NCBI GenBank assembly: GCA_025839675.1
Contig: CP104013.1
Location: 420,001 to 452,000, forward strand
Source: Candidatus Lokiarchaeum ossiferum
GTDB lineage: Archaea > Asgardarchaeota > Lokiarchaeia > Sigyniarchaeales > Promethearchaeaceae
Direction: 5' to 3'
Length of the DNA: 32,000 nucleotides
Both the position numbers and the translations under genes were made by a program. Positions 9,000-26,401 of this stretch are shown here, piece after piece. Position 1 is the first letter of the stretch. The number at the start of each line of letters is the position of its first letter. The notes beneath the pieces are model-generated. The model was not told the origin of the DNA. It did not search any database and worked only from the letters and a program-made list of their open reading frames with translations.

Positions 9000-9860
9000 T
9001 TACTTTGCAAACAGAGTGTTTTTGATGACAACACCTAATCGGCGAATCAATGGAGTGATAGGTTCAAGATAAGTGAAATGTTCATCTTCATATTGCCACA
9101 TTCCAAAACATCCAACAATACTCCTATTTGAGGAATTTTTATTTCTCATTGCAATTCCATTCAATAATTGATCAAAAATTTCAGGATCTAAGGGATATTG
9201 CTCATGTCCAGGATAAATTTCCATTTCAGGATTACTCTTTGCTAAACTTTGCAATTTTTTAATACTTTGTTCTAGAACAGGTATTTTTTTCTTGTCAGGT
9301 AGAAAAATCGTTCCATAGTGAACTGTATCAGAAGTGAAAAGTTCTCCTCGGTCTGTGAAAAGGGAAAGCATTCCATCTGAATGGCCAGGTGTATGAATAG
9401 CAGATACTATTAAGCCTCCTAGATCAAATTTTTTCCCATCAACAATTTCAATTACATTTTTTGGAGGGTTGAATTTAAAATTCCTATCTTTATAACGTTC
9501 TTTGATCTTCATTGGTGATTTTTTTAACAAGAAGGCATTAAATGGTTTTTTTATTACCTTCGCTTCCATTTTATGGATGTGTACTTCTTCAAATTCTTCA
9601 TTTCCTCCAATGTGGTCAAAATGACCATGTGTGTTTACAACAATCAATTTGCGATCTCCAATGATATTATCAACAATCTTTTTTATTGGATATAATCCAG
9701 CACCAGTATCTATGAGAAGGGCTTTTTTCGTCCCTAATAGCAGAAAGTGATTTGAGAACTTCGTTAAAAATCTTGGGTCAATTAAATCTAATTGCTCTTT
9801 AATATTAATTAAATCATCCTTTATTTTATGTACTTCATACCAATCTGAATTGGAACTCAT
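9000..9860 (-). CDS. MBL-fold metallo-hydrolase
   Basis: Canonical HxHxDH motif (VVNTHGHFDHIGGN) plus downstream His/Asp ligand candidates (IHTPGHSDG, TSDTVHYG, YPGHEQ). Confidence 0.85.
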   Translation of the reverse strand: MSSNSDWYEVHKIKDDLINIKEQLDLIDPRFLTKFSNHFLLLGTKKALLIDTGAGLYPIKKIVDNIIGDRKLIVVNTHGHFDHIGGNEEFEEVHIHKMEAKVIKKPFNAFLLKKSPMKIKERYKDRNFKFNPPKNVIEIVDGKKFDLGGLIVSAIHTPGHSDGMLSLFTDRGELFTSDTVHYGTIFLPDKKKIPVLEQSIKKLQSLAKSNPEMEIYPGHEQYPLDPEIFDQLLNGIAMRNKNSSNRSIVGCFGMWQYEDEHFTYLEPITPLIRRLGVVIKNTLFAK

Positions 9861-9949: not shown

Positions 9950-11740
9950 TTAAACGCTTTTAATGTTAATAAAATTAAACCATCTTATTTCTTCGGCGTT
10001 TTTGTCTTTCAAAGTTCCAAATTGAAGGTTTTTTTTCTTTTTTCTCGCTATTTCATTTGCGAGTCTCATATATTCTGAGAATAAGTTTTTTCTATCTACG
10101 TCCTCTTCGTCAAAGCAATCACTTAATTCCATTTTGAGAATATTGGCAGTATTGGGAATTACTTCCAAATCTTTATCAATAAAATTCAAATGATGCCAAT
10201 CTCCAGATTTAAAATCAAAGCTATAATCAGGTAAGAATAAATACCCGTAGGTAGCAACAAAATCAATGGCGTCACAAATGAAATTAAATTCATCTTCAGA
10301 AAAGGCATAATGGAAATTAACACGTACCCAACCAGGTTTAATACCTAAGAAACCTGCTTGAACGACCTTGCGGAATTTTTTTGATTTTTGAGTATTAATA
10401 TTCATTAAATGATGACCATATACTCCAGCACAAGAACACCCTGCTCTTGATTGTATTCCAAAGAGATCATTCAACAATTTAGTACAAAATTTGGGATGGA
10501 GATATTTATCCTGATTTTTAATTAAGAAGGAAAAGATACAAATTCTTTGATCGGGATCTTGAGGGCCTAAAATTTCAATATTAGGATTTTCATTGAAAAA
10601 TTTAAAAGCACGATGAGTATACTCTAGTTCTTTTGCTTCGATATTTGAAATACCTATTGAATCTTTAATATCAATTGCTAAGGCAGCCTTGATAGTTTGT
10701 AAAATTCCAGGTGTTCCGGGTTTTTCTCGAGTTTCCACATCTTCAATAAAATCTACAGCATAAGAACTTACAAAATCCACCGTTCCTCCAGCTGCGAAAG
10801 TTGGATCAATGGAAGCGTCATAAATCTTCTTGTTAAAAACGAGAATTCCCGTAGATCCTGGACCTCCAATGAATTTATGAGGGGAAATAAATATTCCATC
10901 AAAATAAGAAAGTTCATCCTTATTCATATTTATTTCCACATAGGGTGCACTTGCCGCAAAATCAAAGAAAGCTAAAGCATCGTGTTCATGAAGTATTCGT
11001 GCTACTTCATAAACTGGTGTCTTAATACCAGTTACATTTGATGCTGCTGAAAATGATCCAATTTTTTCACGACCGGCATATTTAGGATCTTCCAATTTAG
11101 CAATTAAATCGTGCAAATCTAAATATCCATCCTCGGATAACTTAATTTCGACTACATCATTAAGAGCTTGACGCCACATTATGTCATTTGAATGGTGTTC
11201 ATAAGGACCTACAAATACAATTGGTTTAAATTTATTCATATCAGACTTAATTTCATTTACAAGTGCTTGTTTTGCACTATCTTTACCAATCGCTTGATTT
11301 ATTGTATGTTCAAGGAGTCTTTTTGAAGCAGGAGGCAATCTCACTCCAAGAATTTCTTGTGTCTTTGAAATAGCTCCAGTAGAACCCGTCCCCGTTGCAA
11401 TAACATAGCAATTTTGGTCAGCATTGAATGCTTTTTTAATGATATGTTCGGAATGGTGGAGTAAACCAGTCATATGTCTTCCAGTGACATCATCCTCTGT
11501 ATGAGTATTTGCATATTGCCGTTGAACTTGAACTAAATACTTTTCTACAAATTTCAATGAACGCCCCGAGGCGGTATAATCTGCATAAGTTAATAATCGA
11601 TCACCGTAGGGTGTTTTAAAGAAAAAATCTCTCCCGATAATTTCATCTCGTAATTTTTTAAATGTTAAAGCTTGACTCATAATTTTCGCCTTCAGAGATA
11701 ATTGCTTGATAAGATAACTAAGTAACTTAAGCGTTCTCAT
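9950..11740 (-). CDS. Aminotransferase class-V fold PLP-dependent enzyme (cysteine-desulfurase-like), long form
   Basis: PLP-lysine context 'ISPHKFIGGPGSTGILVF', 'SAASNVTGI', and an N-terminal 'YADYTASGRSL' typical of this family. An internal ATG at 11680 (MSQALTFKKLRDEIIG...) is the more likely start than 11740. About 150-aa C-terminal extension. Confidence 0.8.
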   Translation of the reverse strand: MRTLKLLSYLIKQLSLKAKIMSQALTFKKLRDEIIGRDFFFKTPYGDRLLTYADYTASGRSLKFVEKYLVQVQRQYANTHTEDDVTGRHMTGLLHHSEHIIKKAFNADQNCYVIATGTGSTGAISKTQEILGVRLPPASKRLLEHTINQAIGKDSAKQALVNEIKSDMNKFKPIVFVGPYEHHSNDIMWRQALNDVVEIKLSEDGYLDLHDLIAKLEDPKYAGREKIGSFSAASNVTGIKTPVYEVARILHEHDALAFFDFAASAPYVEINMNKDELSYFDGIFISPHKFIGGPGSTGILVFNKKIYDASIDPTFAAGGTVDFVSSYAVDFIEDVETREKPGTPGILQTIKAALAIDIKDSIGISNIEAKELEYTHRAFKFFNENPNIEILGPQDPDQRICIFSFLIKNQDKYLHPKFCTKLLNDLFGIQSRAGCSCAGVYGHHLMNINTQKSKKFRKVVQAGFLGIKPGWVRVNFHYAFSEDEFNFICDAIDFVATYGYLFLPDYSFDFKSGDWHHLNFIDKDLEVIPNTANILKMELSDCFDEEDVDRKNLFSEYMRLANEIARKKKKNLQFGTLKDKNAEEIRWFNFINIKSV

Positions 11741-11926: not shown

Positions 11927-12433
11927 ATGGAAAACGAACATGATGATAAAAAAAGACGAAGTCTTTTAGATAAGGTAGATAAATTAATTCTAAATGAATT
12001 GCAACATGATGATCGAATTTCTTCATCAGATCTAGCAAAAAAATTGGGAATTGCAAAATCTACTTTGACTTATCGAATAAAACGCTTGGAAGATGAAAAA
12101 ATCATTCTTGGTTATCGAGCAATTGTAGATCCATCGAAACTGGGTAAAGATGAGCAGATGATTGTTCGAATAAGAGCAAAATTTGGTTCTGGATATCATG
12201 AAAAAGTGGGAAAAATGCTGTCCAATATCCCAGGAGTATATGCAGTTTATTTTGTTTTCGGTGAAAATGATTTTGTGATTTTGGCACGAGCTGAAAACCG
12301 CGAGGAGTTATTTGAAAAAATGCAAATACTTTTCAATTCGGATTTTGTTGAACGAACAACTACTGAAGTTGTTACTAAAGTGATAAAAGAAGACTTTGGC
12401 ACGTATCTACAGGTGAATAATGGGACGAAGTGA
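11927..12433 (+). CDS. Lrp/AsnC family transcriptional regulator
   Basis: N-terminal wHTH 'LDKVDKLILNELQHDDRISSSDLAKKLGIAKSTLTYRIKRLEDEKII' and a C-terminal RAM-like domain (VYAVYFVFGENDFVILARAEN). Confidence 0.85.
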   Translation: MENEHDDKKRRSLLDKVDKLILNELQHDDRISSSDLAKKLGIAKSTLTYRIKRLEDEKIILGYRAIVDPSKLGKDEQMIVRIRAKFGSGYHEKVGKMLSNIPGVYAVYFVFGENDFVILARAENREELFEKMQILFNSDFVERTTTEVVTKVIKEDFGTYLQVNNGTK

Positions 12434-12999
12434 TGAATATGAGTGAAGAGAAATCGAAGAAAGAAATTATTGCGGAAACCTTCCTTAAATTCTTTTTACA
12501 ACACGGAATGGTGCAGACAATTATCAATGATGTCGCTAAAGAACTCCACATGAGTAAAAAGACCATTTATAAGTATTTCCGTGGAGGAAAAGAAGAATGT
12601 CTTTACTTTATTTTTAGTAATATAGCCACAGAATCATTGAAACATTTGGAAAACGATTTGAATGACATTCCCGATCCCAAAGAAAAATTAATTTATAGCT
12701 TAAAACACATTTTTGGGTTGGCGGTTCCGTATGTTTTAGGTAACGCCGCAGAGAAAGAAGAAGATTTCTTACTTGAAAATCAAATCGTTGGGGAATCTTT
12801 TCGAGATGTTTTTCAAAATAAATTGAAAATGATCATTCATGAAGGAATTGAGAAAAAAGAATTTCATGTAAAGGACGTAGAACTATCATTTCATTTCATT
12901 TATGGAATAATTACTGAAAGCATGGTAGTTGTCCACCAGAATCCAAAGCGGAATATAGTAAATGAAGTGACCGAGGCAATATTAAAAATTTTGAAATAA
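12430..12999 (+). CDS. TetR/AcrR family transcriptional regulator
   Basis: HTH 'TIINDVAKELHMSKKTIYKYFRGGKEECL' followed by an all-helical C-terminal domain. GTG 12430, ATG 12433 and ATG 12439 are alternative starts. Overlaps the Lrp stop by 4 nt. Confidence 0.8.
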   Translation: MMNMSEEKSKKEIIAETFLKFFLQHGMVQTIINDVAKELHMSKKTIYKYFRGGKEECLYFIFSNIATESLKHLENDLNDIPDPKEKLIYSLKHIFGLAVPYVLGNAAEKEEDFLLENQIVGESFRDVFQNKLKMIIHEGIEKKEFHVKDVELSFHFIYGIITESMVVVHQNPKRNIVNEVTEAILKILK

Positions 13000-13029
13000 T
13001 AATCCAGATATATTGAGAAGGCCCGAATT

Positions 13030-13749
13030 ATGACTAAAACGATACAATATACATCTAAACACCATGCTATCCTCTTTGGATTTATTGCCAAATCTGTAAT
13101 TGATACAATGGGTGAAGATGGGCGAGAGATTATCCGCAATGCTGCACATAAATATGGAAACCAGCGAGGAAAACGAATGGCATTACGTGTTTTAAGCGAT
13201 GAATTACCATTGACAATGGAAAACTATTTCGTATATTCAGAATGGAATACGCAAGATGGAGATGCCAAGTCTTATGTCAAGGATTTAACTCCAGAATATA
13301 TTTTTTGTGTGGAAGTGTGTTCTTGGTGTGAAAACTGGAAAGAGTTTAACCTCTCAGAATATGGGAAATATTACTGTTCAGAAATCGACATCGCATTGTT
13401 AGAAGGATACAATCCCAAGTTGACTCTCGAAGTCCCCAAAATTTTATCTTTAGGAGATAAACAATGCCAGTTCCATTGGAAAGATGCCCATTTCACAAAG
13501 CAAGATTTAGAGAATATAAATCAAATGAAACAAAGAAGTGAAGGAAGTCATGTTGCATCATGGGAATTTCATACAGCTCATCTCTATTTTACAATGAAAC
13601 AAGAAATTTGCACTCATTTAAAAGAAAAAGCCCAAATTATAATGGAAACGGCTGAAAAACTGTTTAAAGACGCTTTTGGCCAAAATTCCATAAATCAACT
13701 GATGACTTATGAACTGGTGAATTTTTCCACCTTAGATTTTTTTAAATAA
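13030..13749 (+). CDS. L-2-amino-thiazoline-4-carboxylic acid (ATC) hydrolase-family-like protein
   Basis: The Cys-rich core 'CSWCENWKEFNLSEYGKYYCSEIDIALLEGYNPKLTLEVPKILSLGDKQCQFHW' matches my memory of the ATC_hydrolase family pattern (C..ae.W.e.gl.e....YC..D.a...GfNP.l.l.r...l..Gd..C.F). Not verified by search. Confidence 0.5.
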   Translation: MTKTIQYTSKHHAILFGFIAKSVIDTMGEDGREIIRNAAHKYGNQRGKRMALRVLSDELPLTMENYFVYSEWNTQDGDAKSYVKDLTPEYIFCVEVCSWCENWKEFNLSEYGKYYCSEIDIALLEGYNPKLTLEVPKILSLGDKQCQFHWKDAHFTKQDLENINQMKQRSEGSHVASWEFHTAHLYFTMKQEICTHLKEKAQIIMETAEKLFKDAFGQNSINQLMTYELVNFSTLDFFK

Positions 13750-13773
13750 ACCTAATATAACGGTTAATTCGCT

Positions 13774-14913
13774 ATGAAAGAAGATAAAAATCTCAAAGTT
13801 ACCATTATTGGATTTGGAAATTTAGCAGAATCTCTATTCTACTACTTAGAACAATTCATTGGTCCTGAAAATTATCTATCCCAAATAAATGCAACTACTG
13901 CTGATGTAGAAACTATTGAGAAAAAACGAAATAAATATGGAATTTCAATTATATTGGAGAATAATGTGGAAGCTTTAAAACTCCTTCAACCAGATATCAT
14001 CTTTTTTTCCCCTCCTCCTTCGGTTGCTCCAAGAATTATTCAAAATGAGTTAACCAAATATTTTGATTTTATCAGACAACATAATCTCCCTCTCCCGGAC
14101 ATTTATGCATTTCCACCAGTTCCGGATGCAGAGCTTTATCAGACACTCTTAGGAAAAAATGTTCAAGTTGTTACTATACTCCCTAATGATGTACGAGAAA
14201 TCGGCTCTAAACGGCTTATTGGTGAAGGAGTCACATTTTGTGTTTTCCCTTCTAAGTGGAAACAAGAATCTTATAGTCGATTGAGACGATTTTTATCACC
14301 TTTTGGAGAAATCTACACATTTAAAACTCCCGAAATTTTACCAATTCTTTCCACCCGTGTATTGACGACTGCTTTTGCCCAAATTGTAGTAAAAACAACA
14401 GAAATAGTTAAGAAGAAGTTGGAAGGTACCCAAATAAAAGTCTCCCATAACAATATTGCAAAAACCTTCCAAAATTTATTTTTGAATTTTAAAGATAGCA
14501 AAGTAGAATTGGACACGTTTGAATCTAGCTTTAAATTAGATAATATTACCAAGAAATCTTTAGAATCAATTATTATTGCATGGTATAGCGGAATTCTCGA
14601 ATATACTCGAAAACAAAACTTTCCTCATGAAAAGGCAGATTTCATTGTGAGTTCAATGTTGGACTTAATATTGCAGCTTTCAGCAAATGTTCCGAAGGAG
14701 AAACTCAATGATTTACTCTTTATTTCTGCCACGAAAGGCGGACTTCTTGAAACATGTTTGAATTACATCCAAATAAACATCTTCGAACATTTACAAGATA
14801 TATTGACTGTTGACACAATTCTTGAAAAAGAACAAGTGAAGAGTAAAATATATAATGAAGTCATTAATGCCTGTAATATAGTTTTAGAGCATGGAAAAAA
14901 TCTCACGAAGTAA
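13774..14913 (+). CDS. NAD(P)-binding Rossmann protein, divergent pyrroline-5-carboxylate-reductase (ProC)-like
   Basis: N-terminal 'KVTIIGFGNLAESL' (ProC: IGFIGaGnMaeAl), 'PDIIFFSPPPSVAP' (ProC: DvviLAVKPq) and C-terminal 'ISATKGGLLETCLNYI' (ProC: vtSPGGtTiaGl..L). About 100 aa longer than typical ProC. Confidence 0.45.
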   Translation: MKEDKNLKVTIIGFGNLAESLFYYLEQFIGPENYLSQINATTADVETIEKKRNKYGISIILENNVEALKLLQPDIIFFSPPPSVAPRIIQNELTKYFDFIRQHNLPLPDIYAFPPVPDAELYQTLLGKNVQVVTILPNDVREIGSKRLIGEGVTFCVFPSKWKQESYSRLRRFLSPFGEIYTFKTPEILPILSTRVLTTAFAQIVVKTTEIVKKKLEGTQIKVSHNNIAKTFQNLFLNFKDSKVELDTFESSFKLDNITKKSLESIIIAWYSGILEYTRKQNFPHEKADFIVSSMLDLILQLSANVPKEKLNDLLFISATKGGLLETCLNYIQINIFEHLQDILTVDTILEKEQVKSKIYNEVINACNIVLEHGKNLTK

Positions 14914-14956
14914 ATTTAAACTCTGTATTAAGATACAAACTCAAATTCAAATTAGG

Positions 14957-14970
14957 AAAAAAAAATAAAA
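14957..14970 (-). terminator. Oligo-T terminator for the GRE operon (T4-A-T9 on the minus strand)
   Basis: The plus strand reads aaaaaaaaataaaa at 14957-14970, beginning 6 nt after the minus-strand stop at 14976-14978. Confidence 0.45.
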
Positions 14971-14975
14971 GGTTT

Positions 14976-15863
14976 CTAACTAAATTCTGTAACTTTTTCC
15001 CTCACAGAGAGGTTGGGGAACATTTCACCAACTAAAGGAGGCATGGAATTGTAAACTACCTCAATATCCACAATTCCACGTTTATTCTGAATCCCAAGAA
15101 AAGTTCCTTTTACCATCTGGGTGACCGTTTCAAAATCCATTGCAAAAACCGAAACTTTTGCCCCATTAGGAATTTGTAATAAATCTTCTTTAAATTGAGC
15201 CAGATTAAACACGATTCGTTTATTTTCTACAGATCGTGCTTGGAAAAGAGGAATAATCACAGGATATCCATCCTTAGGATCAATATAGCTAATAAATTTT
15301 GGGAATACTAATCCTTTAAACAAACGATTCCCAAGCTCTTGTAATCGATTCTCGACCTTCCCAGTTTTTCCACCGATTTTGAAGAGATTTTGAATGATTC
15401 CTTTAACAATTCCTACCAAACTTATTCCACGGATATGGCGAGCGGCTTTAATTTTGTTGAAGAAAATTCGATACACCCGCATATAGGTATTATAACGGAA
15501 AAGATTCATAGAATTGAACTCAATAGCATCATCCCCTTCCATTGAAATATAATCTAAATCGGCTTTGAGTTGTAAAAACTTGAAGGGCATCGCTACCGTC
15601 ATATAAAGCATACCTTGTTTGGGATTTTTTAGAACATTTCCTTTGGACATTCCCCGAGTAAATTCACCCCATTTGACTACTTCTGGAGACATAGCGATAT
15701 TGGATGTGATGAAACTCAGATGTGGATATCCTTCTTTATCAATCGTAGACACAAACTTTGCCATAATTTCTGGTTTTGTGAATTTGACTGCTTCTTCACT
15801 TAATTTTGGATTCCATTTGAGCATTTCAGTTTTATTTGACATTTTTTCACTTTCCTTGTTCAA
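14976..15863 (-). CDS. Tandem PNPOx-like (FMN-binding split-barrel) domain protein
   Basis: Two repeats of the pyridoxamine-5'-phosphate-oxidase-family pattern. Repeat 1 is 'FVSTIDKEGYPHLSFITS...SKGNVLKNPKQGMLYM'. Repeat 2 is 'FISYIDPKDGYPVIIPLFQARS...NGAKVSVFAM...VKGTFLGI'. 9-bp gap to the activase gene. Confidence 0.5.
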   Translation of the reverse strand: MNKESEKMSNKTEMLKWNPKLSEEAVKFTKPEIMAKFVSTIDKEGYPHLSFITSNIAMSPEVVKWGEFTRGMSKGNVLKNPKQGMLYMTVAMPFKFLQLKADLDYISMEGDDAIEFNSMNLFRYNTYMRVYRIFFNKIKAARHIRGISLVGIVKGIIQNLFKIGGKTGKVENRLQELGNRLFKGLVFPKFISYIDPKDGYPVIIPLFQARSVENKRIVFNLAQFKEDLLQIPNGAKVSVFAMDFETVTQMVKGTFLGIQNKRGIVDIEVVYNSMPPLVGEMFPNLSVREKVTEFS

Positions 15864-15872
15864 TTAAAAAAA

Positions 15873-16835
15873 TTATACTTTTCGTGTTAGACCGGACCAC
15901 TTTACATTGTGAACTCCAATACTAATGGCAATATCGTAATAATATTCCATTTCATCCTGTGTGAATAATTTATCTTGAGTAAAATCCCAAGGTAAATTCA
16001 TGCGAGCATACTTTGCGGCTGCAAGATTATTAAAGGCTAGGATATCCCAACGTTCAATTTTATTATCCAATTCTTCCACAATGAAAGATGCGATACCTCG
16101 AATATTTTCATCTGATGCGGTATAGCGTGGAATTATTGGTGTTCTAATCCATAGTTGCTTTTCTTGATTATCAATTTCTCGAGCCAACCATCGTATATTA
16201 GCTAAAATTTTCTCATTAGGATGACCTACAAAGGATTTATGCTTTTTTGAATCGATTTCCTTGATATCAAGTAAGAAAATATCCACTAAAGGCAATAATT
16301 TCAGATAATTCTTTTGAGAAGATAACCCGCATGTATCGAGTGCAGTTGAAAAACCATTCGCTTTACATTTTTTTAATAAGGCTAAGAGAAAATCCATTTG
16401 TAGGGTTGGTTCTCCTCCTGAAATTGTTATTCCCCCGCCTGATTTATCATAAAATGCGCGATCCTTAGCAATTTCTTCATACAAATCTTCCACAGACCAA
16501 TATTTTCCGATCATCTTCAACGCTGTTGAGGGACATTCTTCAACACATTCTCCACAAGCAGTGCATTTCTCTCGATTAATTTTAATCCCTGATTCAGATG
16601 AAATGATTGCTTTTTGCTGACAAACCTCTAAGCATGATAGACAGCCAATACACTTATTTTTAAACCATTGGATACTTGGTTTTTTCCATATCGATTCAGG
16701 ATTGTGACACCATGCACAACGAAGGGGACACTCTTTGAAAAAGATAGTTGTTCGTATTCCTGGACCATCTTCTGTGCTGAGTTTCTGAATCTCAAAGACC
16801 CACCCTCCATTTTCTCCCGATTTCTGTTCTGTCAT
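15873..16835 (-). CDS. Glycyl-radical enzyme activating enzyme (radical SAM, ferredoxin-insert type)
   Basis: 'STEDGPGIRTTIFFKECPLRCAWCHNPE' carries the CX3CX2C radical-SAM cluster. Two extra clusters are present: 'CIGCLSCLEVC' and 'CTACGECVEECP'. The 'GGGITISGGEPTLQ' SAM-binding motif is also present. Confidence 0.9.
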   Translation of the reverse strand: MTEQKSGENGGWVFEIQKLSTEDGPGIRTTIFFKECPLRCAWCHNPESIWKKPSIQWFKNKCIGCLSCLEVCQQKAIISSESGIKINREKCTACGECVEECPSTALKMIGKYWSVEDLYEEIAKDRAFYDKSGGGITISGGEPTLQMDFLLALLKKCKANGFSTALDTCGLSSQKNYLKLLPLVDIFLLDIKEIDSKKHKSFVGHPNEKILANIRWLAREIDNQEKQLWIRTPIIPRYTASDENIRGIASFIVEELDNKIERWDILAFNNLAAAKYARMNLPWDFTQDKLFTQDEMEYYYDIAISIGVHNVKWSGLTRKV

Positions 16836-16859
16836 TTTCTATATTACACCGAAATTTAC

Positions 16860-19388
16860 TTACATTTGATGGTTTTCACGAGCTATTAATTCATCCTGTA
16901 ATTCTTTTCCTATGGATGTGAAATAGGCATTATAACCTGTGACCCTAACTAGAAGATTTGCATAATTTTCGGGATGATGTTGAGCATCAATTAACATTTT
17001 TGCATCTAACATGTTGATCTGAAGAGCAGTTCCACCGTTCTCAATATAACCGCGAATATAGGCTTTAAATTTTTCTTTGTGCTCAGAATCACGCAGAAGA
17101 CTCGGATTGAAAGTTATTGTGTGTGAAGCACCATTTGGAAGGAAATTAATGTAATCCCCAGTTTCTGTTTTGCCTCCTAATGCATTACCCACCGAGTTTG
17201 TTACCGCAGTAGGACCTTTAGTATCTGCGCCATTGGTAGGACAAATAGCATTTGAAAGAAATGTCCCAGCTTTCCTCCCATTAGGTGTTGCAGGGGTAAA
17301 AGCAGCATCTTCTCCAGCCCAATAATTCCAAGAAAGCATGCCGGGTCTAAATTTATAGTTAGTTGGAGTAGTATACTGATAGGTTTCTTTAGACCAGAAC
17401 TCCATTGCTTCTCGTGCAATCTCATCCATTTCTGTCTCGTCGTTACCAAATTTCGGTGCCTTATTTGAGAGAATTGCTTGCATGATTTCATATTCCTTTT
17501 TGCCTTCAAAATTATTTATTAGAGCTTCTTTAATTTGAGCAAAAGAATATTTTTTCTCATCAAAAACATATTTTTTAATCGCTAAAAGCGAATCAACCAT
17601 AGTAGCAAAGGCGACACCTTCTATAGTTACAAATCCATATTTAGGAGGACCCGCATGTATATCAATGCCTTTTGAAATACAATCATCCATTAATATTGAT
17701 AAGTAAGGTACAGGAAGATATTTTGCGCGAGTTTCTTCACCTAAATTGTAAAAATCAACTGTATATTTGATAATATATTTAATCTGTTTTTTCCAAGCAT
17801 TGAAAAATTCATCCCATGATTGAAATGTCTCTGGATCTCCTGTTTCTGGACCAAATTGTTTTGATTCTTTATATTGTTTAAAAGTATTATCACCCATTAT
17901 ACGTTTAAAGCCTGGTTGATTTTTACCGTTCCATAATGTTAACTCAATACTTTTTGCGAGATTAGGATTACAATTAACGGTTCCTGATCGATCATTTCCG
18001 CACATTGTATTTTCAAGACATCCAACACATCCATAATCCCATACTTCATCTTTAGGAATACCTTCTTCCATTAATCCCGCCATACTACGTTCATCAAAGT
18101 TCAAAATGAAGGGAGCACCTTGTGCGCGGGTTATCATTTCAATAAGTTTATCGATTAATTTATCTGGTGAACCTCGGTGTAATCTCACATTGGGTTTTGG
18201 TTCTAAGATCGGAGCCCATTCGTCAAAACATTCTAAAATTAAATAAGTTAATTCATTGGTGAGATCCTCTCCTTTAGGTCCTAGTCCCGATAGAGTTATA
18301 AGTTGACCGAACCCAGCAGTAATTCCTTGATTTCCGATCTTAATTTGTGCATCATAAGCGGTGTTACAATGAAATATAAAGGAACTGAAAATATCTTTGG
18401 CCATATCTCGGGATAATGTTTGGTCTTCAAGCACATCCCTTTTATAAAGCGGCCATAAAATTTGATCAATTCGCCCAAAACTAAAACCAGGTCCAGGATA
18501 ACTTCCTTCGGACATGGTTAACATATGTGCAATCCAAATAGATTGAAGACTTTGCCAAAAGGTGGTAGCTGGTCCCCAAGGAACTTGCTTTAAATTTTCA
18601 TGCATCAATTTCAATTCTTCTTTTCTTTCTTCCGTAGATGCTGAAGCAAGTAAGTTTTCACATTCTTCCGCATATTTTACTGCCAAATCTCGAGGTAATT
18701 CCGCAGCAATCATCATCGCTCGTAGTTCAGAACCTTTAGATCCTTTTTTTTCAGAGTCGGAAAGTGCAGAGTAGGTTTTTTTTGCTTTATCATAAAGATA
18801 GGAAAACCCCTTTTCAACAACTGTTTTAAAATCTGGAATTATGTGTCCACCAGTTGCCCCTGCATTCCCAAAGCCTTCTTGGTGATAATGAAGAGCAGCA
18901 GTGCGATTTCTTAAATTTTCCTTTTCATAAATTTCATATTCTTTAGCATTCAGACATTTAGAGAGTTGTGTATTAAATCTTCCTCCCGCGAGTAAATCAT
19001 TTTCAGAAATTATCTCTTGAGGAATATAATCGACCATTACCATTTTTAAAAATGTAGCTCTTCTTTCAGGAAGGGAAAGATCCCAAAATTCTAAGGGTAA
19101 TTCTACCTTCTGTGCCATTTGAAGAAGTGAAAGGCCAAATAACCCTTTTCCCTTTACTCCCATAAATCCATAGACTTCTGGAACAATATGATAATCCCCT
19201 TCATTCCATACTCTATCTCCCCATGATGCCCCTGTTGTATAGGGAGAATATTCGTTATTCCATTTCCGATCATTTCCTTTAAAATAATAATCACGTAACC
19301 ATTTTGCTTTTGGAGAAAGATCATGGGATTGGGCAACCGAATATTGTGGTATATTTACTGAATTTGATTTTTTTTTTGTATCACTCAT
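16860..19388 (-). CDS. Glycyl radical enzyme, PFL2/dehydratase-lyase class, substrate unknown
   Basis: 842 aa. C-terminal glycyl-radical motif 'LLVRVTGYNAYF' (Gly818, codon 16935-16937). Cys loop 'YGCVGCLEN' (Cys454, Cys457, Glu459). Family-typical 'APKFGNDETEMDEIA' and 'NGADTKGPTAV' blocks. Confidence 0.9.
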   Translation of the reverse strand: MSDTKKKSNSVNIPQYSVAQSHDLSPKAKWLRDYYFKGNDRKWNNEYSPYTTGASWGDRVWNEGDYHIVPEVYGFMGVKGKGLFGLSLLQMAQKVELPLEFWDLSLPERRATFLKMVMVDYIPQEIISENDLLAGGRFNTQLSKCLNAKEYEIYEKENLRNRTAALHYHQEGFGNAGATGGHIIPDFKTVVEKGFSYLYDKAKKTYSALSDSEKKGSKGSELRAMMIAAELPRDLAVKYAEECENLLASASTEERKEELKLMHENLKQVPWGPATTFWQSLQSIWIAHMLTMSEGSYPGPGFSFGRIDQILWPLYKRDVLEDQTLSRDMAKDIFSSFIFHCNTAYDAQIKIGNQGITAGFGQLITLSGLGPKGEDLTNELTYLILECFDEWAPILEPKPNVRLHRGSPDKLIDKLIEMITRAQGAPFILNFDERSMAGLMEEGIPKDEVWDYGCVGCLENTMCGNDRSGTVNCNPNLAKSIELTLWNGKNQPGFKRIMGDNTFKQYKESKQFGPETGDPETFQSWDEFFNAWKKQIKYIIKYTVDFYNLGEETRAKYLPVPYLSILMDDCISKGIDIHAGPPKYGFVTIEGVAFATMVDSLLAIKKYVFDEKKYSFAQIKEALINNFEGKKEYEIMQAILSNKAPKFGNDETEMDEIAREAMEFWSKETYQYTTPTNYKFRPGMLSWNYWAGEDAAFTPATPNGRKAGTFLSNAICPTNGADTKGPTAVTNSVGNALGGKTETGDYINFLPNGASHTITFNPSLLRDSEHKEKFKAYIRGYIENGGTALQINMLDAKMLIDAQHHPENYANLLVRVTGYNAYFTSIGKELQDELIARENHQM

Positions 19389-19491
19389 TTAAATTCGCCT
19401 ATTAAAAAATTTTAAACGTCCCAAACTATACTATATATATCTAAGGATGTAGATATATTTATAGATATCCGAATTTTCAGCAAATGTTGGC

Positions 19492-19531
19492 ATGGAAACT
19501 CGGGTTTCCATTAGTAAACGGGAGTTTCCAT
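19492..19531. promoter_or_regulatory. Candidate operator: perfect 8-bp inverted repeat ATGGAAAC-TCGG-GTTTCCAT plus a third GTTTCCAT half-site 20 bp away
   Basis: ATGGAAAC at 19492-19499, GTTTCCAT at 19504-19511, GTTTCCAT again at 19524-19531. Each right half-site is followed by A/T then TAAAC. Lies about 105-140 bp upstream of the GRE start, in the 164-bp gap after the 206-aa gene. Confidence 0.4.
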
Positions 19532-19552: not shown

Positions 19553-20173
19553 TTATTTTAAAAATGAGTAAATGTGATCAATCAGTTCTTGAGGTACTTT
19601 CATATTTTTATTCTTTATCCATTGTTTAAGATCTTCTGGGATAGTTACATCCAAATTGGCATTTGTAAAATCAGATTTTCGTTTATAAAAATGAAGAAAT
19701 CCATCTTCAACTTCTTCTATAAAAATTTGGCAACGGAAGTTTTCTTCAAACCACTTATTATATTTGTATTTTGCGCGTAATGGATCTTTATATAGACATT
19801 TATATTTTAAAACAAGATATATTTTTGTCTCATCTTGAATATCTTCTTCATATTTATTTGTAAACATTTTGGTTATTTGCTCTTTAGTCAAATTATTAAT
19901 TAATACATCTAAAAACTCAAATCCACGTGTTGAATATCGAAGATACTTATCTTTAGAGGAAAATATCAAGCGTAAAACAGGATTCGCATCAGTACCAATC
20001 CAAGTACAACTCAATTCTTTGGTTTTTTCAACCCGAACTTTTATGATCTCCAGAATTTCTTTAAAAGATAACTCTGTTTCTAATGTTTTGATAATTGAAA
20101 TATCTAAAAAAATGTTATTTTGATCCACATAAAATATTATTTTGGTGAACCTAAAAAAATTAGACTGTTTCAT
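19553..20173 (-). CDS. Hypothetical soluble protein (206 aa), overlapping the upstream ABC exporter gene
   Basis: ATG start lies 14 nt inside the end of the ABC gene (20160..20173 overlap). No TM segments and no recognisable motif. Lys/Glu/Tyr-rich. Confidence 0.5.
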   Translation of the reverse strand: MKQSNFFRFTKIIFYVDQNNIFLDISIIKTLETELSFKEILEIIKVRVEKTKELSCTWIGTDANPVLRLIFSSKDKYLRYSTRGFEFLDVLINNLTKEQITKMFTNKYEEDIQDETKIYLVLKYKCLYKDPLRAKYKYNKWFEENFRCQIFIEEVEDGFLHFYKRKSDFTNANLDVTIPEDLKQWIKNKNMKVPQELIDHIYSFLK

Positions 20174-21992
20174 CTATAGCGGGGTCTTCATCCCAATTTT
20201 CGATTTTTTGGATGAAATCATAAGATTGGTGCTTAAAATAGGTATTATAGAGATTTGAATAATGACCTCCTTTTTGCATTAGAGTATCGTGGTTCCCTTC
20301 TTCAACAATAGTCCCATGATCTAAAACAATTATTCGATCTACGTGACGAACGGTTCTTAAACGATGAGCGATGATAATTGAAGTTCGACCTCTCATCAAA
20401 TGTTCCATTGCTTCTTGAATTTTAGTTTCTGTAAATGGATCTACACTGGCAGTCGCTTCATCCAAGATTAATATAGATGGATTTTGCAAGAGAACACGAG
20501 CAAAAACCACTAATTGTCTTTGACCCATCGAAAGTAATTTACCCCGTTCTCGAATATTAGTATCAAGACCATCAACCAAATCATTAACCCAATCTGCCCC
20601 CCCTGCTTGCTCTAAAGCCCAAATTACATTTTCACGTGTTGCATTAGGTGAACCATATTTTACATTATTTTCAAGTGTATCAGCCCAAAGGAAGGGAGAC
20701 TGGGGGATCATTCCAATAAATCTTCGGTATTCTTTCAAAGAAATGTCACGGATATTTTTCCCATCAACTATTATATTTCCTTTTTGAAATTCATAAAAAC
20801 GAAGTAATAATCGTGCTAAACTGGATTTACCCGCTCCTGTATGGCCCACTATTGCAATTGATTCTCCTGGTTTGATGTCCAAATTGAAATTTTGAAAAAT
20901 TGGCTTTTCAGGCTCATAATAGAATGACATATCTTCAAATTGCAAATGACCATCCAATTTTTCAAAAACAAATTCTTCTTTCTGAATTACCGCAGGTTTA
21001 CTATCAATAAGTGCAAAAGTCCTTTCTGCTGCAGCCATCCCAGTTTGAAATTGAGGCCAAAATGCAGCGATTTGAAAGAGTGGGAAGAAAAGATTCCATA
21101 AACTTTGAATAAATAAATAAAGATCTGCACCTTGTAAACTTCCGAAAAGTATAGAATCCCCTCCAAAATAGATTAAACAAGCGAATGTAACACCTTGAAT
21201 TATGCTTAATCCGGGAAAGATGAGATTCATATACATAGCCCTATTAAAATTGACTTTGAAGCATTGTTTATTTATTTTCTTGAATTCATCATATAATTTT
21301 TCTTCTTGTCGGAAAGTTTTTGCAATCTGAATTCCTGCCATTGTCTCTTGAACAAAAGAATTAACCGAAGCCAGAGCTCTTTGTCCCAGTAACGTTTTTT
21401 TCCGAGCTACTTTTCGAAAAGATAGCGTGAAAATGAAGATCAATGGAATCATGATTAAAAGAACGGAAGTTAAACGAAAATCGATCGAAAACATTGGCAC
21501 AAATAAAATAAAGACGGCTAATAGTGCCGAGATGGACTGAATAAATAGCAGAGCCATCTCACCAAAACTTTGGGTATCAGAATTTACTCGACTAACGATT
21601 TTTCCAGTTGGATATTTATCAAAGAAAGACATATCTTGAATTAAAACATTATTGTTGACATCAGTTCTCAAATCATAAATAACATGGTTGAGAACTCTGG
21701 CAGAATAGTATTGATTTATCCAATTAAATACCCAAACAAAAGTATTTAAAATAAAGATAAGGACAATTCCAAAAGTGATCGCAGAAAAATCCAAACCATC
21801 TTCAAGGCTTGCGAGAATTTTACTCGTAAAATAAGGAATAATTCCATTCGAAATTGAAGCAAGCAATATGAAAATAGTCACAATTACCATTTTTTTTTTA
21901 TGTAATTTAAAATAATCCAGAATACGAATCATTAGTTCCTTATCAGTGTATTTTCGATCGTATTCTTCAGCTTCTAGTCCAAACCAAACCAT
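20160..21992 (-). CDS. ABC exporter permease/ATPase fusion (type I exporter half-transporter), consensus-ATPase subunit
   Basis: Six-TM N-terminal domain. Walker A GHTGAGKSS, Walker B ILILDEATASVD with the catalytic Glu, H-loop IIAHRL. The signature is atypical, LSMGQRQ. Confidence 0.9.
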   Translation of the reverse strand: MVWFGLEAEEYDRKYTDKELMIRILDYFKLHKKKMVIVTIFILLASISNGIIPYFTSKILASLEDGLDFSAITFGIVLIFILNTFVWVFNWINQYYSARVLNHVIYDLRTDVNNNVLIQDMSFFDKYPTGKIVSRVNSDTQSFGEMALLFIQSISALLAVFILFVPMFSIDFRLTSVLLIMIPLIFIFTLSFRKVARKKTLLGQRALASVNSFVQETMAGIQIAKTFRQEEKLYDEFKKINKQCFKVNFNRAMYMNLIFPGLSIIQGVTFACLIYFGGDSILFGSLQGADLYLFIQSLWNLFFPLFQIAAFWPQFQTGMAAAERTFALIDSKPAVIQKEEFVFEKLDGHLQFEDMSFYYEPEKPIFQNFNLDIKPGESIAIVGHTGAGKSSLARLLLRFYEFQKGNIIVDGKNIRDISLKEYRRFIGMIPQSPFLWADTLENNVKYGSPNATRENVIWALEQAGGADWVNDLVDGLDTNIRERGKLLSMGQRQLVVFARVLLQNPSILILDEATASVDPFTETKIQEAMEHLMRGRTSIIIAHRLRTVRHVDRIIVLDHGTIVEEGNHDTLMQKGGHYSNLYNTYFKHQSYDFIQKIENWDEDPAIDETV

Positions 21993-21993
21993 T

Positions 21994-23826
21994 TTAATTA
22001 TTCTCCTCCAATAATTCTTCTAAAGTTTTATCAAAACGTGTTAAAAAGATTTTTCTATATTCCTCTGAGGTTTTCAATAAGTGTTCATGGGAACCTTGTG
22101 CAACAATTTTACCAAGCCGAAAGACAATAATTTTATCCGCCCACCGAATTTGACTCAATCGGTGAGTAATTAAAAGCGTTGTTCTTCCTTTGAGAATGCG
22201 GGAAATTGCCCTTTGAATATTTTCTTCCGTTGCAGAATCAATTGCTGAAGTAGAATCATCTAAAACCAAAATTTTAGGATCCGAAATAAAAGCGCGAGCG
22301 ATTGCAATTCGTTGACGTTCTCCCCCACTCAATTGAACACCACGTTCTCCGACATTAGTATCGTATTGTTTTGGTAACTTTAAGATAAATTCATGAGCTT
22401 GAGCATCCTTTGCGGCTTTAATTACTTCTTCTTTACTTGTTACTCTCCCAAAAGCGATGTTTTCAAAAATACTTTTGGAAAACAGAAATATATCTTGCTC
22501 AATGTATGCAATTTGATTGCGAAGAGAATGCAATTCATAGTCTTTAATATCAATACCATCTACTAATATTTGACCTTTAGGTACGTCATATAATCTTGAA
22601 ATTAATTTTGTGCAAGTTGTTTTTCCCGATCCTGTTGTCCCAACAATAGCAATTGTTTCACCAGCCTTAGCTGAAAATGAAACACCTTTCAGAACCAGAT
22701 TCTCGGTCCTAGGATAAGAAAAAAACACTTCTTTAAATTCAATATCTCCACTAATATTCTTTTTAATGGAATTATCCATTTGAACAATTTCTGAAGATTT
22801 ATTCATTGTATCCAGTAGTCTATCAGCCCCCGCTATCGCACGTTTTACTAAAGCAAAAGCCCATATTGATATTCGTGTTGGAAAATAAAGTGTCAAAATC
22901 AACCCCATATAACCAATGATCTCATAGACCTCCATTTCACCTCTTTGTTGGAGAATAATTGCGTAAACAAGACTTAAAGTTATTGTTATAGCAACCATAA
23001 GAAGAGGAAAATATCGAGCTTGAATTTGTCCTTCCTTAACTCCAATTTCAAGGTATTTTTTTGCTTGCTTTTGATATAACCGAATTGAACGTTTTTCTTG
23101 AGCCATGCCTTTTATAACTTCTATTCCAGATAATGATTCATTAAGGATGGCGTTAAGATTGCCATATTCCATTTGCTTAGCTTGAACTACTGGCCCTAAA
23201 CTATTAACATACTGTTTTAAAGCAACAACAAAGAGTACACTATAGATTGAAGGGATTATAGCCAATCTTGGGGAGTAAATTAAGGCAACCATGACAATCG
23301 GTACGATTGTATTAATAACCGATTCAAAAATTAGTGATATACCGGGACTAATTAAAAAATTTAATTGACGGACGTCATTTGTTGCTCTAGCCATTATATC
23401 CCCCAGTCTTTGTTCATCATGGAATGATTGACTTTTTCCTAATAAATTTAAATATAGTTCATTTCGAGAATCCCGTTCCATCCGTTGTGCTAATATTTCA
23501 CGGAGAACATTTCCCAATAAATCTAATAAAGGTGAACCTATTCCTAATAGCAAGATTAAAACGGAGTAAAATATCAAATCTTGAGTGTTTCCGGCAGTAA
23601 AAGACCCAATTGCTTCTCCTAAATATACTTTCACCCGGGCATAAACAATTGCCGAAAAAATTGTTAAAATGACCCAAGAAAAGATAAAAATTTTATTATT
23701 TCTATATAATAGATGTTTTAATATCCAAACATAGGTTTTTTTTTGACGTGCTTCATAAAAATCATCATTAGTTGGCTTAAATTCTAGATGATTCAAATTT
23801 CTGCTAGTTTCTACTTGTTTTTGCAC
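21994..23826 (-). CDS. ABC exporter permease/ATPase fusion (half-transporter), degenerate-Walker-B subunit
   Basis: Walker A GTTGSGKTT and canonical signature LSGGERQ. Walker B is ILVLDDSTSAID, with Asp replacing the catalytic Glu. H-loop LITHRL. 1-bp gap to the partner gene. Confidence 0.9.
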   Translation of the reverse strand: MQKQVETSRNLNHLEFKPTNDDFYEARQKKTYVWILKHLLYRNNKIFIFSWVILTIFSAIVYARVKVYLGEAIGSFTAGNTQDLIFYSVLILLLGIGSPLLDLLGNVLREILAQRMERDSRNELYLNLLGKSQSFHDEQRLGDIMARATNDVRQLNFLISPGISLIFESVINTIVPIVMVALIYSPRLAIIPSIYSVLFVVALKQYVNSLGPVVQAKQMEYGNLNAILNESLSGIEVIKGMAQEKRSIRLYQKQAKKYLEIGVKEGQIQARYFPLLMVAITITLSLVYAIILQQRGEMEVYEIIGYMGLILTLYFPTRISIWAFALVKRAIAGADRLLDTMNKSSEIVQMDNSIKKNISGDIEFKEVFFSYPRTENLVLKGVSFSAKAGETIAIVGTTGSGKTTCTKLISRLYDVPKGQILVDGIDIKDYELHSLRNQIAYIEQDIFLFSKSIFENIAFGRVTSKEEVIKAAKDAQAHEFILKLPKQYDTNVGERGVQLSGGERQRIAIARAFISDPKILVLDDSTSAIDSATEENIQRAISRILKGRTTLLITHRLSQIRWADKIIVFRLGKIVAQGSHEHLLKTSEEYRKIFLTRFDKTLEELLEENN

Positions 23827-24096: not shown

Positions 24097-24462
24097 ATGG
24101 CTAAAATTTTAATTGTTGATGACGCGAAATTCATGCGAAACATATTGGTGAAAATTTTGACAGCAAATGGTCATCAAATAGTCGGAGAAGCAGATAGTGC
24201 GAATGAGGGAATAGAAAAATTTAAAGAACTATCTCCAGATTTGGTTACTATGGATATTTGCATGCCCGATAAAAGTGGTATGGAAGCGATTAAGGAAATT
24301 ATCGAAATTGATCCCAATGCAAAAATTGTGGTATGTTCTTCACTTGGACAAGAATTGATGGTTATGGAAGCAATTCAAATGGGGGCAAAAGACTTTATTG
24401 TAAAACCATTTAAAAAAGAAAAACTCGCAGAAATGATCAACAAAATCGTTCAAGAACCATGA
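24097..24462 (+). CDS. cheY: Chemotaxis response regulator CheY (stand-alone receiver)
   Basis: 121 aa. Acidic pocket 'ILIVDDAKFMR', phospho-acceptor context 'LVTMDICMPDKSG', 'VVCSS' and 'VKPF' (conserved Lys). The length and the FMR/MPxxxG pattern are CheY-like. Confidence 0.9.
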   Translation: MAKILIVDDAKFMRNILVKILTANGHQIVGEADSANEGIEKFKELSPDLVTMDICMPDKSGMEAIKEIIEIDPNAKIVVCSSLGQELMVMEAIQMGAKDFIVKPFKKEKLAEMINKIVQEP

Positions 24463-24487
24463 ATTAATTATAGAAGAATGATTAAAA

Positions 24488-25144: not shown

Positions 25145-25171
25145 GATACATAGATTAAAAAAAATTTTTAG

Positions 25172-25789: not shown

Positions 25790-25792
25790 GCC

Positions 25793-26377: not shown

Positions 26378-26401
26378 AAGATTCAGAGAGACGAGTTTCA
26401 C

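Follow-up and report, generated by a model that had tools for sequence, protein, structure and literature searches.

All glycyl radical enzymes (GREs) of the pyruvate formate-lyase-like (PFL-like) type with characterised functions are bacterial, and archaeal GREs constitute a clear gap, according to a 2026 review (PMC13450708). All characterised GRE 1,2-eliminases have a Cys-X-Glu motif (PMC13450708; also PMC7077986). In HypD, Asp278 and Asp339 are strictly conserved and catalytic, and Ser334, Tyr450 and Thr645 bind the carboxylate (PMC7077986), while the sulfonate of the IslA substrate is anchored by Arg189, Gln193 and Arg678 (PMC13450708). As for archaea, GREs of Hermodarchaeota and Thorarchaeota with a single cysteine preceded by glycine have been annotated as alkyl- or benzylsuccinate synthases (Ass/Bss) on 29-33% identity (PMC8163825). 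Here, we describe a GRE of Candidatus Lokiarchaeum ossiferum and the six genes surrounding it, located at 11927-19388 in a stretch of 32,000 nucleotides (contig CP104013.1, positions 420,001 to 452,000; hereafter, the window).

The seven open reading frames (ORFs) of the locus form two convergent operons, which an earlier note on this DNA had connected into a pathway of cyclic imino-acid metabolism. The analysis indicates, with a probability of about 0.7, that two independent units, which happen to adjoin each other in Lokiarchaeum, make up the locus, and that the minus-strand three-gene module is the conserved one. This module would be self-contained and comprise the GRE, a radical S-adenosylmethionine (SAM) enzyme as its activase, and a flavoprotein-like partner with tandem split barrels (hereafter, p295). 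The features are as follows, in window coordinates:

11927-12433, plus strand: Lrp/AsnC-family regulator (HTH_24 2.8e-15, AsnC_trans_reg 2.9e-8)
12430-12999, plus strand: TetR-family regulator (TetR_N 1.8e-7), which probably controls the GRE operon
13030-13749, plus strand: ATC_hydrolase-family (PF14196) protein of 239 aa (ATCH; PF14196 1.2e-21)
13774-14913, plus strand: NAD(P)-binding oxidoreductase of 379 aa with the fold of pyrroline-5-carboxylate (P5C) reductase (ProC-like; PF03807 2.5e-5; AlphaFold2 (AF2) and Foldseek)
14976-15863, minus strand: tandem split-barrel (PNPOx/FMN-binding-like) protein p295, ORF of 295 aa (AF2 and Foldseek)
15873-16835, minus strand: GRE activating enzyme of 320 aa (TIGR02494 1e-98)
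16860-19388, minus strand: GRE of 842 aa (PFL-like 1e-117, Gly_radical 4.3e-22)
19455-19465, minus strand: TATA-like element TCTATAAATAT, some 70 nt before the ATG of the GRE gene, read from the sequence
19492-19531, no strand assigned: candidate operator upstream of the GRE gene, two palindrome copies

The coordinates of the ORFs, the convergent arrangement with its gap of 62 bp (14914-14975) and the spacing of the plus operon (a 4-nt overlap of the Lrp and TetR genes, then gaps of 30 and 24 bp) were described correctly in the earlier note. Its family labels Lrp/AsnC, TetR, ATC_hydrolase, GRE and GRE activase agree with the Pfam and NCBIfam results. In the minus operon, the gap of 24 bp between the GRE gene and the activase gene downstream of it stands, and the gap of 9 bp to p295 becomes about 30 bp because of a revised start: an alignment with 26 homologues points to the ATG at 15842 (288 aa) as the likely start of p295, and not the TTG at 15863. 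The family length is 288-295 aa.

With one genome taken for each species, a pattern scan revealed at least 585 relatives of the GRE, and the best 80 loci, 43 Asgard (59-72% identity) and 37 bacterial (51-54%), were used for the neighbourhood counts. The GRE gene is followed by the activase and p295 genes in 57 of these 80 loci. All 31 bacterial loci having enough downstream sequence contain the full triad, and p295 is located within the locus in 25 of the 36 Asgard loci with enough sequence. The activase gene adjoins the GRE gene in most loci; in five Asgard loci (L012, L021, L024, L040 and L041) p295 directly follows the GRE gene, and the activase gene is farther off or absent. The 1,091 neighbouring ORFs were clustered, and Pfam searches were carried out on about 50 cluster representatives and on flanking genes. 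The GRE, the activase and p295 are the only three families common to the archaeal and bacterial neighbourhoods, and no pathway common to both was found among the clustered ORFs. We conclude that the GRE module is self-contained. This orphan module of archaea and bacteria, with its GRE, activase and split-barrel architecture, is new, and no description of a GRE with a PNPOx/split-barrel partner was found in the literature.

A phmmer search was performed with the window proteins against all ORFs of the best 80 GRE loci (other species), and four close relatives were examined as well. ATCH, the ProC-like protein and the Lrp regulator were found in none of the 80 loci (0/80 each), and TetR was found in two. 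The syntenic relative L083 keeps the Lrp, TetR and ProC-like genes and has no ATCH gene; L081, with a GRE identity of 82%, keeps only TetR of the four plus-strand genes, and L085 (77%) has none of them. Near a GRE of this clade, a ProC-like gene is confined to the window, L083 and L084, and an Lrp/AsnC gene to the window and L083. Co-conservation of the plus operon with the GRE, the point on which the earlier note had staked its pathway beforehand, is thus absent, except for TetR. The imino-acid pathway, in which ATCH and the ProC-like protein would be joined to the GRE, fails, as its genes are missing from all 80 loci and lost in close relatives. Here, the convergent arrangement of the genes in a single genome misleads about which of them belong to one pathway.

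The bacterial GRE loci belong to Anaerolineae and Dehalococcoidia (Chloroflexota), Treponema and other spirochaetes, Deltaproteobacteria and Clostridia. The best 120 GRE matches are at least 63% identical to the query, and those with a taxon name are all Asgard (labelled Loki/Promethearchaeota, Thor, Heimdall, Hel, Odin, Sigyn and Hod), with the exception of one 'Bathyarchaeia' metagenome-assembled genome (MAG). The opinion of the earlier note that such a gene set would be unusual in an archaeon is therefore wrong for Asgard archaea, from which nearly all taxon-named sequences among these matches come. Clade members of the 80-locus set are also present in Hermodarchaeota MAGs (L028 and L032). 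The clade is found in Promethearchaeum MAGs and in Treponema sp. TIM-1 (L056), which is recorded as a strain, not as a MAG.

The position of the GRE relative to characterised families was determined using curated hidden Markov model (HMM) cutoffs, PDB scores and a score profile in a representative library of 1.84 billion proteins. In this library, full-length relatives score 936, 713, 602 and 585 bits, and few proteins share the N-terminal region; generic GREs plateau at no more than 338 bits and are aligned only from residue ~180. The nearest three relatives in the library keep the GRE motifs. The GRE clade is a discrete subfamily.

Several additional observations concern the members of the clade. 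Distant relatives P0269, P0271, P0272 and P0332 keep the clade-specific N-terminal region and have lost the catalytic cysteine (SGFHET, ISGGAI and LGDFGC are found in its place), and the glycyl-radical domain is wholly absent in three of the four. They look like catalytically dead GRE paralogues. In Chloroflexi, two GRE-activase pairs of the clade adjoin each other, in tandem in L049 and divergently in L059. The L020 contig (DATKTW010000103.1) is labelled Candidatus Nanopelagicaceae bacterium. The GRE encoded on it is of the Asgard type (64% identity), as are the neighbours (Cdc6/Orc1, integrase and a thioredoxin-reductase-like protein); probably, this contig is mis-binned. In L056, L063, L072 and L077, an antisense ORF of about 860 aa overlaps the GRE gene and displaces it in a longest-ORF filter. 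This ORF is an artefact of ORF calling, not a gene.

The glycyl site of the GRE is RVTGY with Gly818 and lies in a match to Gly_radical (PF01228); it is invariant in 86 sequences. The Cys-X-Glu loop GCLENT (Gly456-Cys457-Leu458-Glu459) is aligned to Cys433/Glu435 of glycerol dehydratase (GD) and to Cys434/Glu436 of HypD and is also invariant in the clade. The catalytic histidine is kept as His182. The N-terminal ~180 residues are clade-specific, and the two best-matching solved structures align only after them. The GRE misses every curated NCBIfam family cutoff by far: it scores 380.6 bits against a cutoff of 1100 for HypD (NF043068), 307 against 1050 for CutC, 354 for HpsG and 346 for HpfG, both against 1000, and 408.6 against 678.2 for the generic PFL2/glycerol-dehydratase model TIGR01774. 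The earlier note was right to leave this GRE unassigned. The top PDB sequence matches are glycerol dehydratase 1R8W (306 bits) and HypD 6VXC (305 bits).

When 49 archaeal and 37 bacterial sequences are compared, 137 of the 842 GRE residues are invariant. The invariant pocket positions include His182, Gly299/301, Ser303, Gly361, Gln362, GCLENT 456-461, Arg467, Val471, Asn474, Arg681 and GMLSWNYW 683-690. Since the mapped pocket positions are invariant in archaea and bacteria, this argues for the same substrate in both domains. The pocket has glycines at 301, 359 and 361, glutamines at 354 and 362, Asn474 and the clade-specific Arg467, and appears unlike those of all characterised eliminases; from this we infer that its substrate is larger, polar and perhaps anionic. 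A hydroxylated compound of polar and possibly anionic nature is probable, given the room left by the small glycines, the invariance of Gln, Asn and Arg residues and the regulators of the carboxylate type. As the Cys-X-Glu motif is common to all characterised 1,2-eliminases, the chemistry class is probably elimination, with a new pocket.

In the proposed mechanism, the activase would install a radical on Gly818 using SAM and its [4Fe-4S] cluster, and the radical would then move from Gly818 to Cys457. The thiyl radical of Cys457 would take a hydrogen from the hydroxyl-bearing carbon of the substrate, and Glu459 of the Cys-X-Glu motif would deprotonate that hydroxyl. The group on the adjacent carbon would depart with His182 acting as the acid, and this 1,2-elimination would give a carbonyl product. 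The specific chemistry of the GRE, like the role of its split-barrel partner, is offered as a tentative proposal, with the odds somewhat against it.

The activase scores 330 bits with TIGR02494 (cutoff 174) and lies under the cutoffs of all substrate-specific activase equivalog models, of which the HypD activating enzyme (HypD-AE) is closest (311 against 425 bits). A radical-SAM motif C36-x3-C40-x2-C43 and two ferredoxin-like cysteine clusters can be read from its translation.

The third protein of the module, p295, has no above-threshold Pfam match for the 295-aa ORF itself. Its AF2 model, constructed with 27 homologues, has a mean confidence (pLDDT) of 85.4 and consists of two beta-barrel halves. 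A Foldseek search revealed similarity to 3in6, 2htd, 7kq2, HupZ and the F420 reductase MSMEG_3380 (3f7e), with a probability of 1.00 and a target TM-score (TMt) of 0.68-0.76, and each match spans roughly half of the model. Aligned by hhalign, the N-terminal half matches the C-terminal one (E 3.4e-5), and PNPOx_N is weakly matched by 25 of the 27 family members. The label 'tandem PNPOx-like' given in the earlier note is well founded, both in the fold and in these alignments. Some p295 homologues have a precomputed PF01243 match. The homologues form one family of mostly unnamed hypothetical proteins, none with a named function.

The preferred, tentative reading of p295 is that it handles the product or serves as a subunit specific to this GRE, with flavin mononucleotide (FMN) or a deazaflavin as its presumed cofactor. 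Another role, which we consider unlikely though it fares best among the alternatives, is that of a dedicated electron donor that reduces the [4Fe-4S] cluster of the activase and substitutes for flavodoxin, instead of being a pathway enzyme. Small split barrels like the FMN-binding protein of Desulfovibrio vulgaris are indeed among the structural matches, and the p295 gene comes directly after the activase gene in most loci. However, activase reductants are generic, whereas p295 accompanies this particular GRE clade in the loci examined, and the activase already has two ferredoxin-like clusters of its own. We favour a GRE-specific role over that of a generic activase reductant, since p295 follows the GRE, not the activase, in the five Asgard loci mentioned above and belongs to a single unnamed family.

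The regulation of the module was also analysed. A perfect 20-bp palindrome, ATGGAAACTCGGGTTTCCAT, is located at 19492-19511 upstream of the GRE gene, followed by a degenerate second copy at 19512-19531, which lies about 40 nt upstream of the TATA-like TCTATAAATAT. The latter, a putative GRE promoter element, is also present in the syntenic relative L083. In the window and in L001, L002, L033, L036, L081, L082 and L083, the core GGAAAC-N4-GTTTCC precedes the GRE start by 94-149 bp, and it occurs only once elsewhere in the 88 loci; a back-of-envelope estimate of the chance expectation is ~0.04 occurrences. A TetR orthologue is located next to the GRE module in L033, L036, L081 and L083, always with the palindrome, so that, together with the window, the palindrome is present in 5/5 loci having TetR. 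In L033 and L036, it lies inside the divergent TetR-GRE intergenic region. Because the palindrome co-occurs with the TetR gene, TetR is the probable cognate regulator, and it probably regulates the GRE module via the candidate operator GGAAAC-N4-GTTTCC. In Lokiarchaeum and its Promethearchaeum relatives, the neighbouring TetR would control the module through the palindrome upstream of the promoter. In 15 bacterial loci, a GntR/FCD regulator gene lies directly upstream of the GRE gene.

The palindrome was also considered as an intrinsic terminator of the operon that lies upstream and encodes ABC transporters and a 206-aa protein (p206). This was rejected, since it sits between divergent TetR and GRE genes in L033 and L036. 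A second, AT-rich inverted repeat, TATATATATCTA / TAGATATATTTA, is present at 19432-19461 of the window and extends into the TATA-like region of the putative GRE promoter. Low complexity may have produced it by chance, or it could be a second binding site.

As for the plus-strand enzyme pair, ATCH matches PF14196 with 78.5 bits (cutoff 28.1) over residues 11-150, and a PDB sequence search with it gave chance matches only. In the ProC-like protein, the PF03807 F420_oxidored/ProC-type Rossmann domain covers residues 8-91, within the N-terminal 90 residues or so. Its AF2 model has a pLDDT of 89.7, and the top 13 Foldseek matches are P5C reductases (P5CRs; 3tri, 5bse, 2rcy and PYCR1), followed by prephenate and glycerol-3-phosphate dehydrogenases. 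No Pfam P5CR_dimer match, no NCBIfam ProC match and no PDB sequence match at E<=1 was found for this protein. The label 'ProC-like' thus holds at the level of the fold and is not borne out by the P5CR_dimer and NCBIfam ProC models. An ATKGG..E loop is invariant in the family and is reminiscent of the substrate loop of P5CRs. The protein shows 100% identity to one of Ca. L. ossiferum, and all taxon-named sequences among its only 24 homologues are from Lokiarchaeia.

In most of these homologues, from other Lokiarchaeia (P0244-P0260 and P0264), the ATCH and Rossmann domains are fused into one protein of about 610 aa, in both orders. To our knowledge, this architecture is undescribed for ProC or AtcC. 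Such a fusion is carried by Promethearchaeum syntrophicum MK-D1; in MK-D1 and a related contig, no GRE was found within 10 kb of the fusion gene (L087:10001-11818; L088:10001-11821). As the two domains are fused in one protein, they apparently act together, and the fusions are strong evidence of a functional coupling of the ATCH and ProC-like proteins. The pair is the split-gene form of a Lokiarchaeia-specific bi-enzyme, independent of the GRE. It is plausible that it acts on a small cyclic imine or carboxylate, apart from the GRE. Of the case built on the plus-strand genes, the coupling of ATCH and the ProC-like protein to each other and a probable regulation of the GRE by TetR survive, and a pathway shared with the GRE does not. 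The hydrolase-like domain of the fusions may hold a metal site, given its three conserved cysteines (CPW, YCxEID and CEF) and its conserved N-terminal HH.

If the imino-acid idea were nevertheless correct, the GRE would act on a proline-, hydroxyproline- or thiazolidine-like amino acid, and ATCH and the ProC-like protein, processing its substrate or product, would be a lineage-specific recruitment in Lokiarchaeum. The convergent adjacency in the window, which the ProC-like gene shows in L083 and L084 too, the P5C-reductase fold of the ProC-like protein and the presence of TetR, the probable regulator of the GRE, in the same operon as ATCH and the ProC-like gene are consistent with it. Moreover, among the substrate-specific models the activase matches that of the HypD activase best, with 311 bits. 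Against this stand the absence of both enzymes from the 80 loci, the lack of ATCH in L083 and of both genes in L081 and L085, and the solitary fused gene in MK-D1. The HypD residues Asp278, Asp339, Ser334, Tyr450 and Thr645 are replaced in the GRE, and identically so in bacteria without ATCH or ProC genes. The scores lie far from HypD as well (381 against a cutoff of 1100 bits for the GRE, 311 against 425 for the activase), and no copy of the GRE palindrome is located upstream of the Lrp operon, where a search for a second operator gave nothing at up to three mismatches. A HypD-like function of the GRE was rejected, given the replaced catalytic and binding residues and the missed HMM cutoff, and we regard the imino-acid pathway as improbable.

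A different surrounding of the module was noted in 17 Lokiarchaeia loci. On one side of the triad, they have genes for an amidohydrolase, RibD_C, two CofH-like radical-SAM proteins, Pterin_bind+DUF4346, DUF1464 and rubrerythrin; on the other side, genes for DUF447, an archaeal dihydroneopterin aldolase (PF04038) and a GHMP-kinase-like protein. The loci are:

L007, L009, L013, L014, L017, L022, L023, L025-L027, L029-L031, L037-L039 and L043 (n=17): cofactor-island loci, e.g., L030:1-22478

This island looks like the methanopterin/F420 biosynthesis type, and its Pfam families are presumably those of tetrahydromethanopterin (H4MPT) biosynthesis. The module might therefore be a step in the biosynthesis of a pterin, para-aminobenzoate (pABA) or deazaflavin cofactor. 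The 17 Asgard loci share the gene order around the triad, DUF447 is encoded on the same strand directly after p295, and split-barrel-type folds are found in both DUF447 (2ptf, with FMN) and p295. The island is, however, absent from the window and its closest relatives, and bacterial members (Treponema, Clostridia and Deltaproteobacteria) have no such neighbours. The 17 loci are also alike in GRE identity (mostly 63-66% to the query), so that shared ancestry could explain their common gene order. A cofactor step of this kind seems slightly less probable still than the imino-acid pathway. A related long shot, about as doubtful as that pathway, is a hitherto undescribed family of GRE eliminases, common to most Asgard lineages and several anaerobic bacterial phyla, whose tandem split-barrel partner (with flavin or deazaflavin) is obligatory. 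It would perform an as yet undescribed radical elimination, which in Lokiarchaeia, with the module embedded in the methanopterin/F420-type island, could be the missing step of pterin/aminobenzoate cofactor synthesis; if true, no archaeal PFL-like GRE would have been functionally assignable before it.

The neighbourhoods of the other loci differ. MFS_2 transporter, sulfatase, or thiolase and NMO genes are located near the GRE gene in other Asgard loci, and lipase/esterase, FGGY-kinase (GlpK) and GlpD-like genes in Dehalococcoidia. The remaining bacterial neighbourhoods are heterogeneous, with hints that include Fe-ADH and a short-chain fatty acid transporter. In the window, a CDP-archaeol synthase gene is among those flanking the locus. 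A pair of fused ABC_membrane+ABC_tran half-transporters is encoded at 19553-23826 (minus strand), directly upstream of the GRE gene, and also in L002, L082 and L083; the gene of a 206-aa protein without a Pfam match, with a homologue in L083, overlaps the first ABC transporter gene by 14 nt. A functional link of these proteins to the GRE is possible. Homologues of the metallo-beta-lactamase-fold protein encoded at 9000-9860 (minus strand) come right after the split-barrel gene at L037:14537-15085 and L043:5724-6533, and homologues of a long class-V aminotransferase (9950-11740) are encoded near the GRE in L015, L018 and L083. Beyond the ABC genes, the block at 24097-27544 (plus strand) encodes a CheY-like response regulator, a weak CheC-like protein and several proteins with no Pfam match. 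Judging only from gene order, sizes and the Response_reg match, this block is apparently shared with L082:1354-4804 and L083:1-1733.

The least probable assignment, an Ass/Bss that activates hydrocarbons, is consistent with the published annotation of Hermodarchaeota and Thorarchaeota proteins (PMC8163825) and with the clade members in Hermodarchaeota MAGs L028 and L032, but can hardly be maintained, given the Cys-X-Glu motif with invariant Glu459 that marks 1,2-eliminases, the scores of benzylsuccinate synthase 4pkc (138 bits) and MasD 9o8u (191 bits), which are among the weakest PDB matches (GD, 306), the 211 bits of the activase against a cutoff of 496 for BssD (TIGR04003), a third gene that encodes a split barrel and not an Fe-S small subunit, with no small-subunit genes conserved nearby, and the lack of conserved fumarate or beta-oxidation genes in the neighbourhoods examined. 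The clade is already over-interpreted as hydrocarbon-activating Ass/Bss in Asgard metabolic reconstructions.

Several facts weigh against the reading of the locus as two independent units with a conserved, self-contained GRE module. The TetR gene of L. ossiferum belongs to the same operon as those of ATCH and the ProC-like protein, so a lineage-specific functional tie is possible. For a simple repressor, the placement of the palindrome, upstream of the TATA-like box, would be atypical. The pocket positions of the GRE were mapped by pairwise sequence alignment, not by superposed structures, and p295 of the window lies under the gathering cutoff of PNPOx_N (PF01243), 15.9 against 28.1 bits. In 8 of the 36 Asgard loci with enough sequence, the GRE gene has neither the activase nor the p295 gene nearby. 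Finally, the neighbourhood hints on the substrate conflict between lineages.

The module is a real conserved unit, and its identical archaeal and bacterial pocket and adjacent ligand-sensing regulators (TetR and GntR/FCD) make the question experimentally tractable. Lokiarchaeum ossiferum is in culture, and the members in this archaeon and in a named Treponema strain add to the tractability. Literature searches on GREs in L. ossiferum and on a characterised Treponema GRE gave nothing relevant, and a preprint on Asgard microcompartments is unrelated to this GRE. The results on the definition of the module, the pocket and the regulator correct the current annotation.

When comparing the proteins of the locus with known systems, similar folds and different details can be noted. 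The ATCH protein of 239 aa resembles the L-2-amino-thiazoline-4-carboxylate hydrolase family in that it passes the PF14196 cutoff. Like ProC/PYCR1, the 379-aa protein has the two-domain P5CR fold (a Rossmann and a helical dimerisation domain); its identity to them is 11-17%, and its helical domain is about 100 residues longer. Each half of p295 has the fold of PNPOx-like split barrels (3IN6, 2HTD, HupZ 5ESC and MSMEG_3380 3F7E). Unlike them, p295 is a single-chain tandem, a pseudo-dimer, with 9-18% identity to solved structures and is known only beside this GRE clade.

The GRE shares with HypD (6VXC/6VXE) the fold, the glycyl motif, the Cys-X-Glu loop and a histidine equivalent to His160. Phe340 of HypD is kept as Phe360, and HypD-AE is the best substrate-specific match of the activase. 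In contrast, the catalytic Asp278 and Asp339 are replaced by Pro300 and Gly359 in the pairwise alignment, and the carboxylate-binding Ser334, Tyr450 and Thr645 by Gln354, Asn474 and Trp687, these replacements being invariant or nearly so in the clade. Unlike in HypD, the GRE has no conserved P5C reductase neighbour, and the third gene encodes a split-barrel protein. As for the glycerol dehydratase of Clostridium butyricum (1R8W/1R9D), its Cys433, Glu435 and His164 correspond to Cys457, Glu459 and His182. The diol-binding pocket of GD is formed by Ser282, Tyr339, Asp447 and Tyr640, whereas the GRE has Gly301, Gly361, Val471 and Leu685 at these positions, and its first ~180 residues are unaligned. 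The position of Gln193 of IslA falls at about His182, with no arginine near residue 178, the offset being taken from the alignment ranges only.

The 'Ass/Bss-like' GREs of Hermodarchaeota (PMC8163825) and PflD/PFL2 of Archaeoglobus fulgidus (2F3O) resemble the present GRE in being archaeal PFL-like proteins of unproven function with a single cysteine after glycine, and PflD/PFL2 scores only 267 bits against it. Probably, this set of Asgard 'Ass/Bss-like' GREs and PflD/PFL2 includes members of the present clade. Unlike the X-succinate synthases, the clade described here has the eliminase Cys-X-Glu motif and a conserved split-barrel partner.

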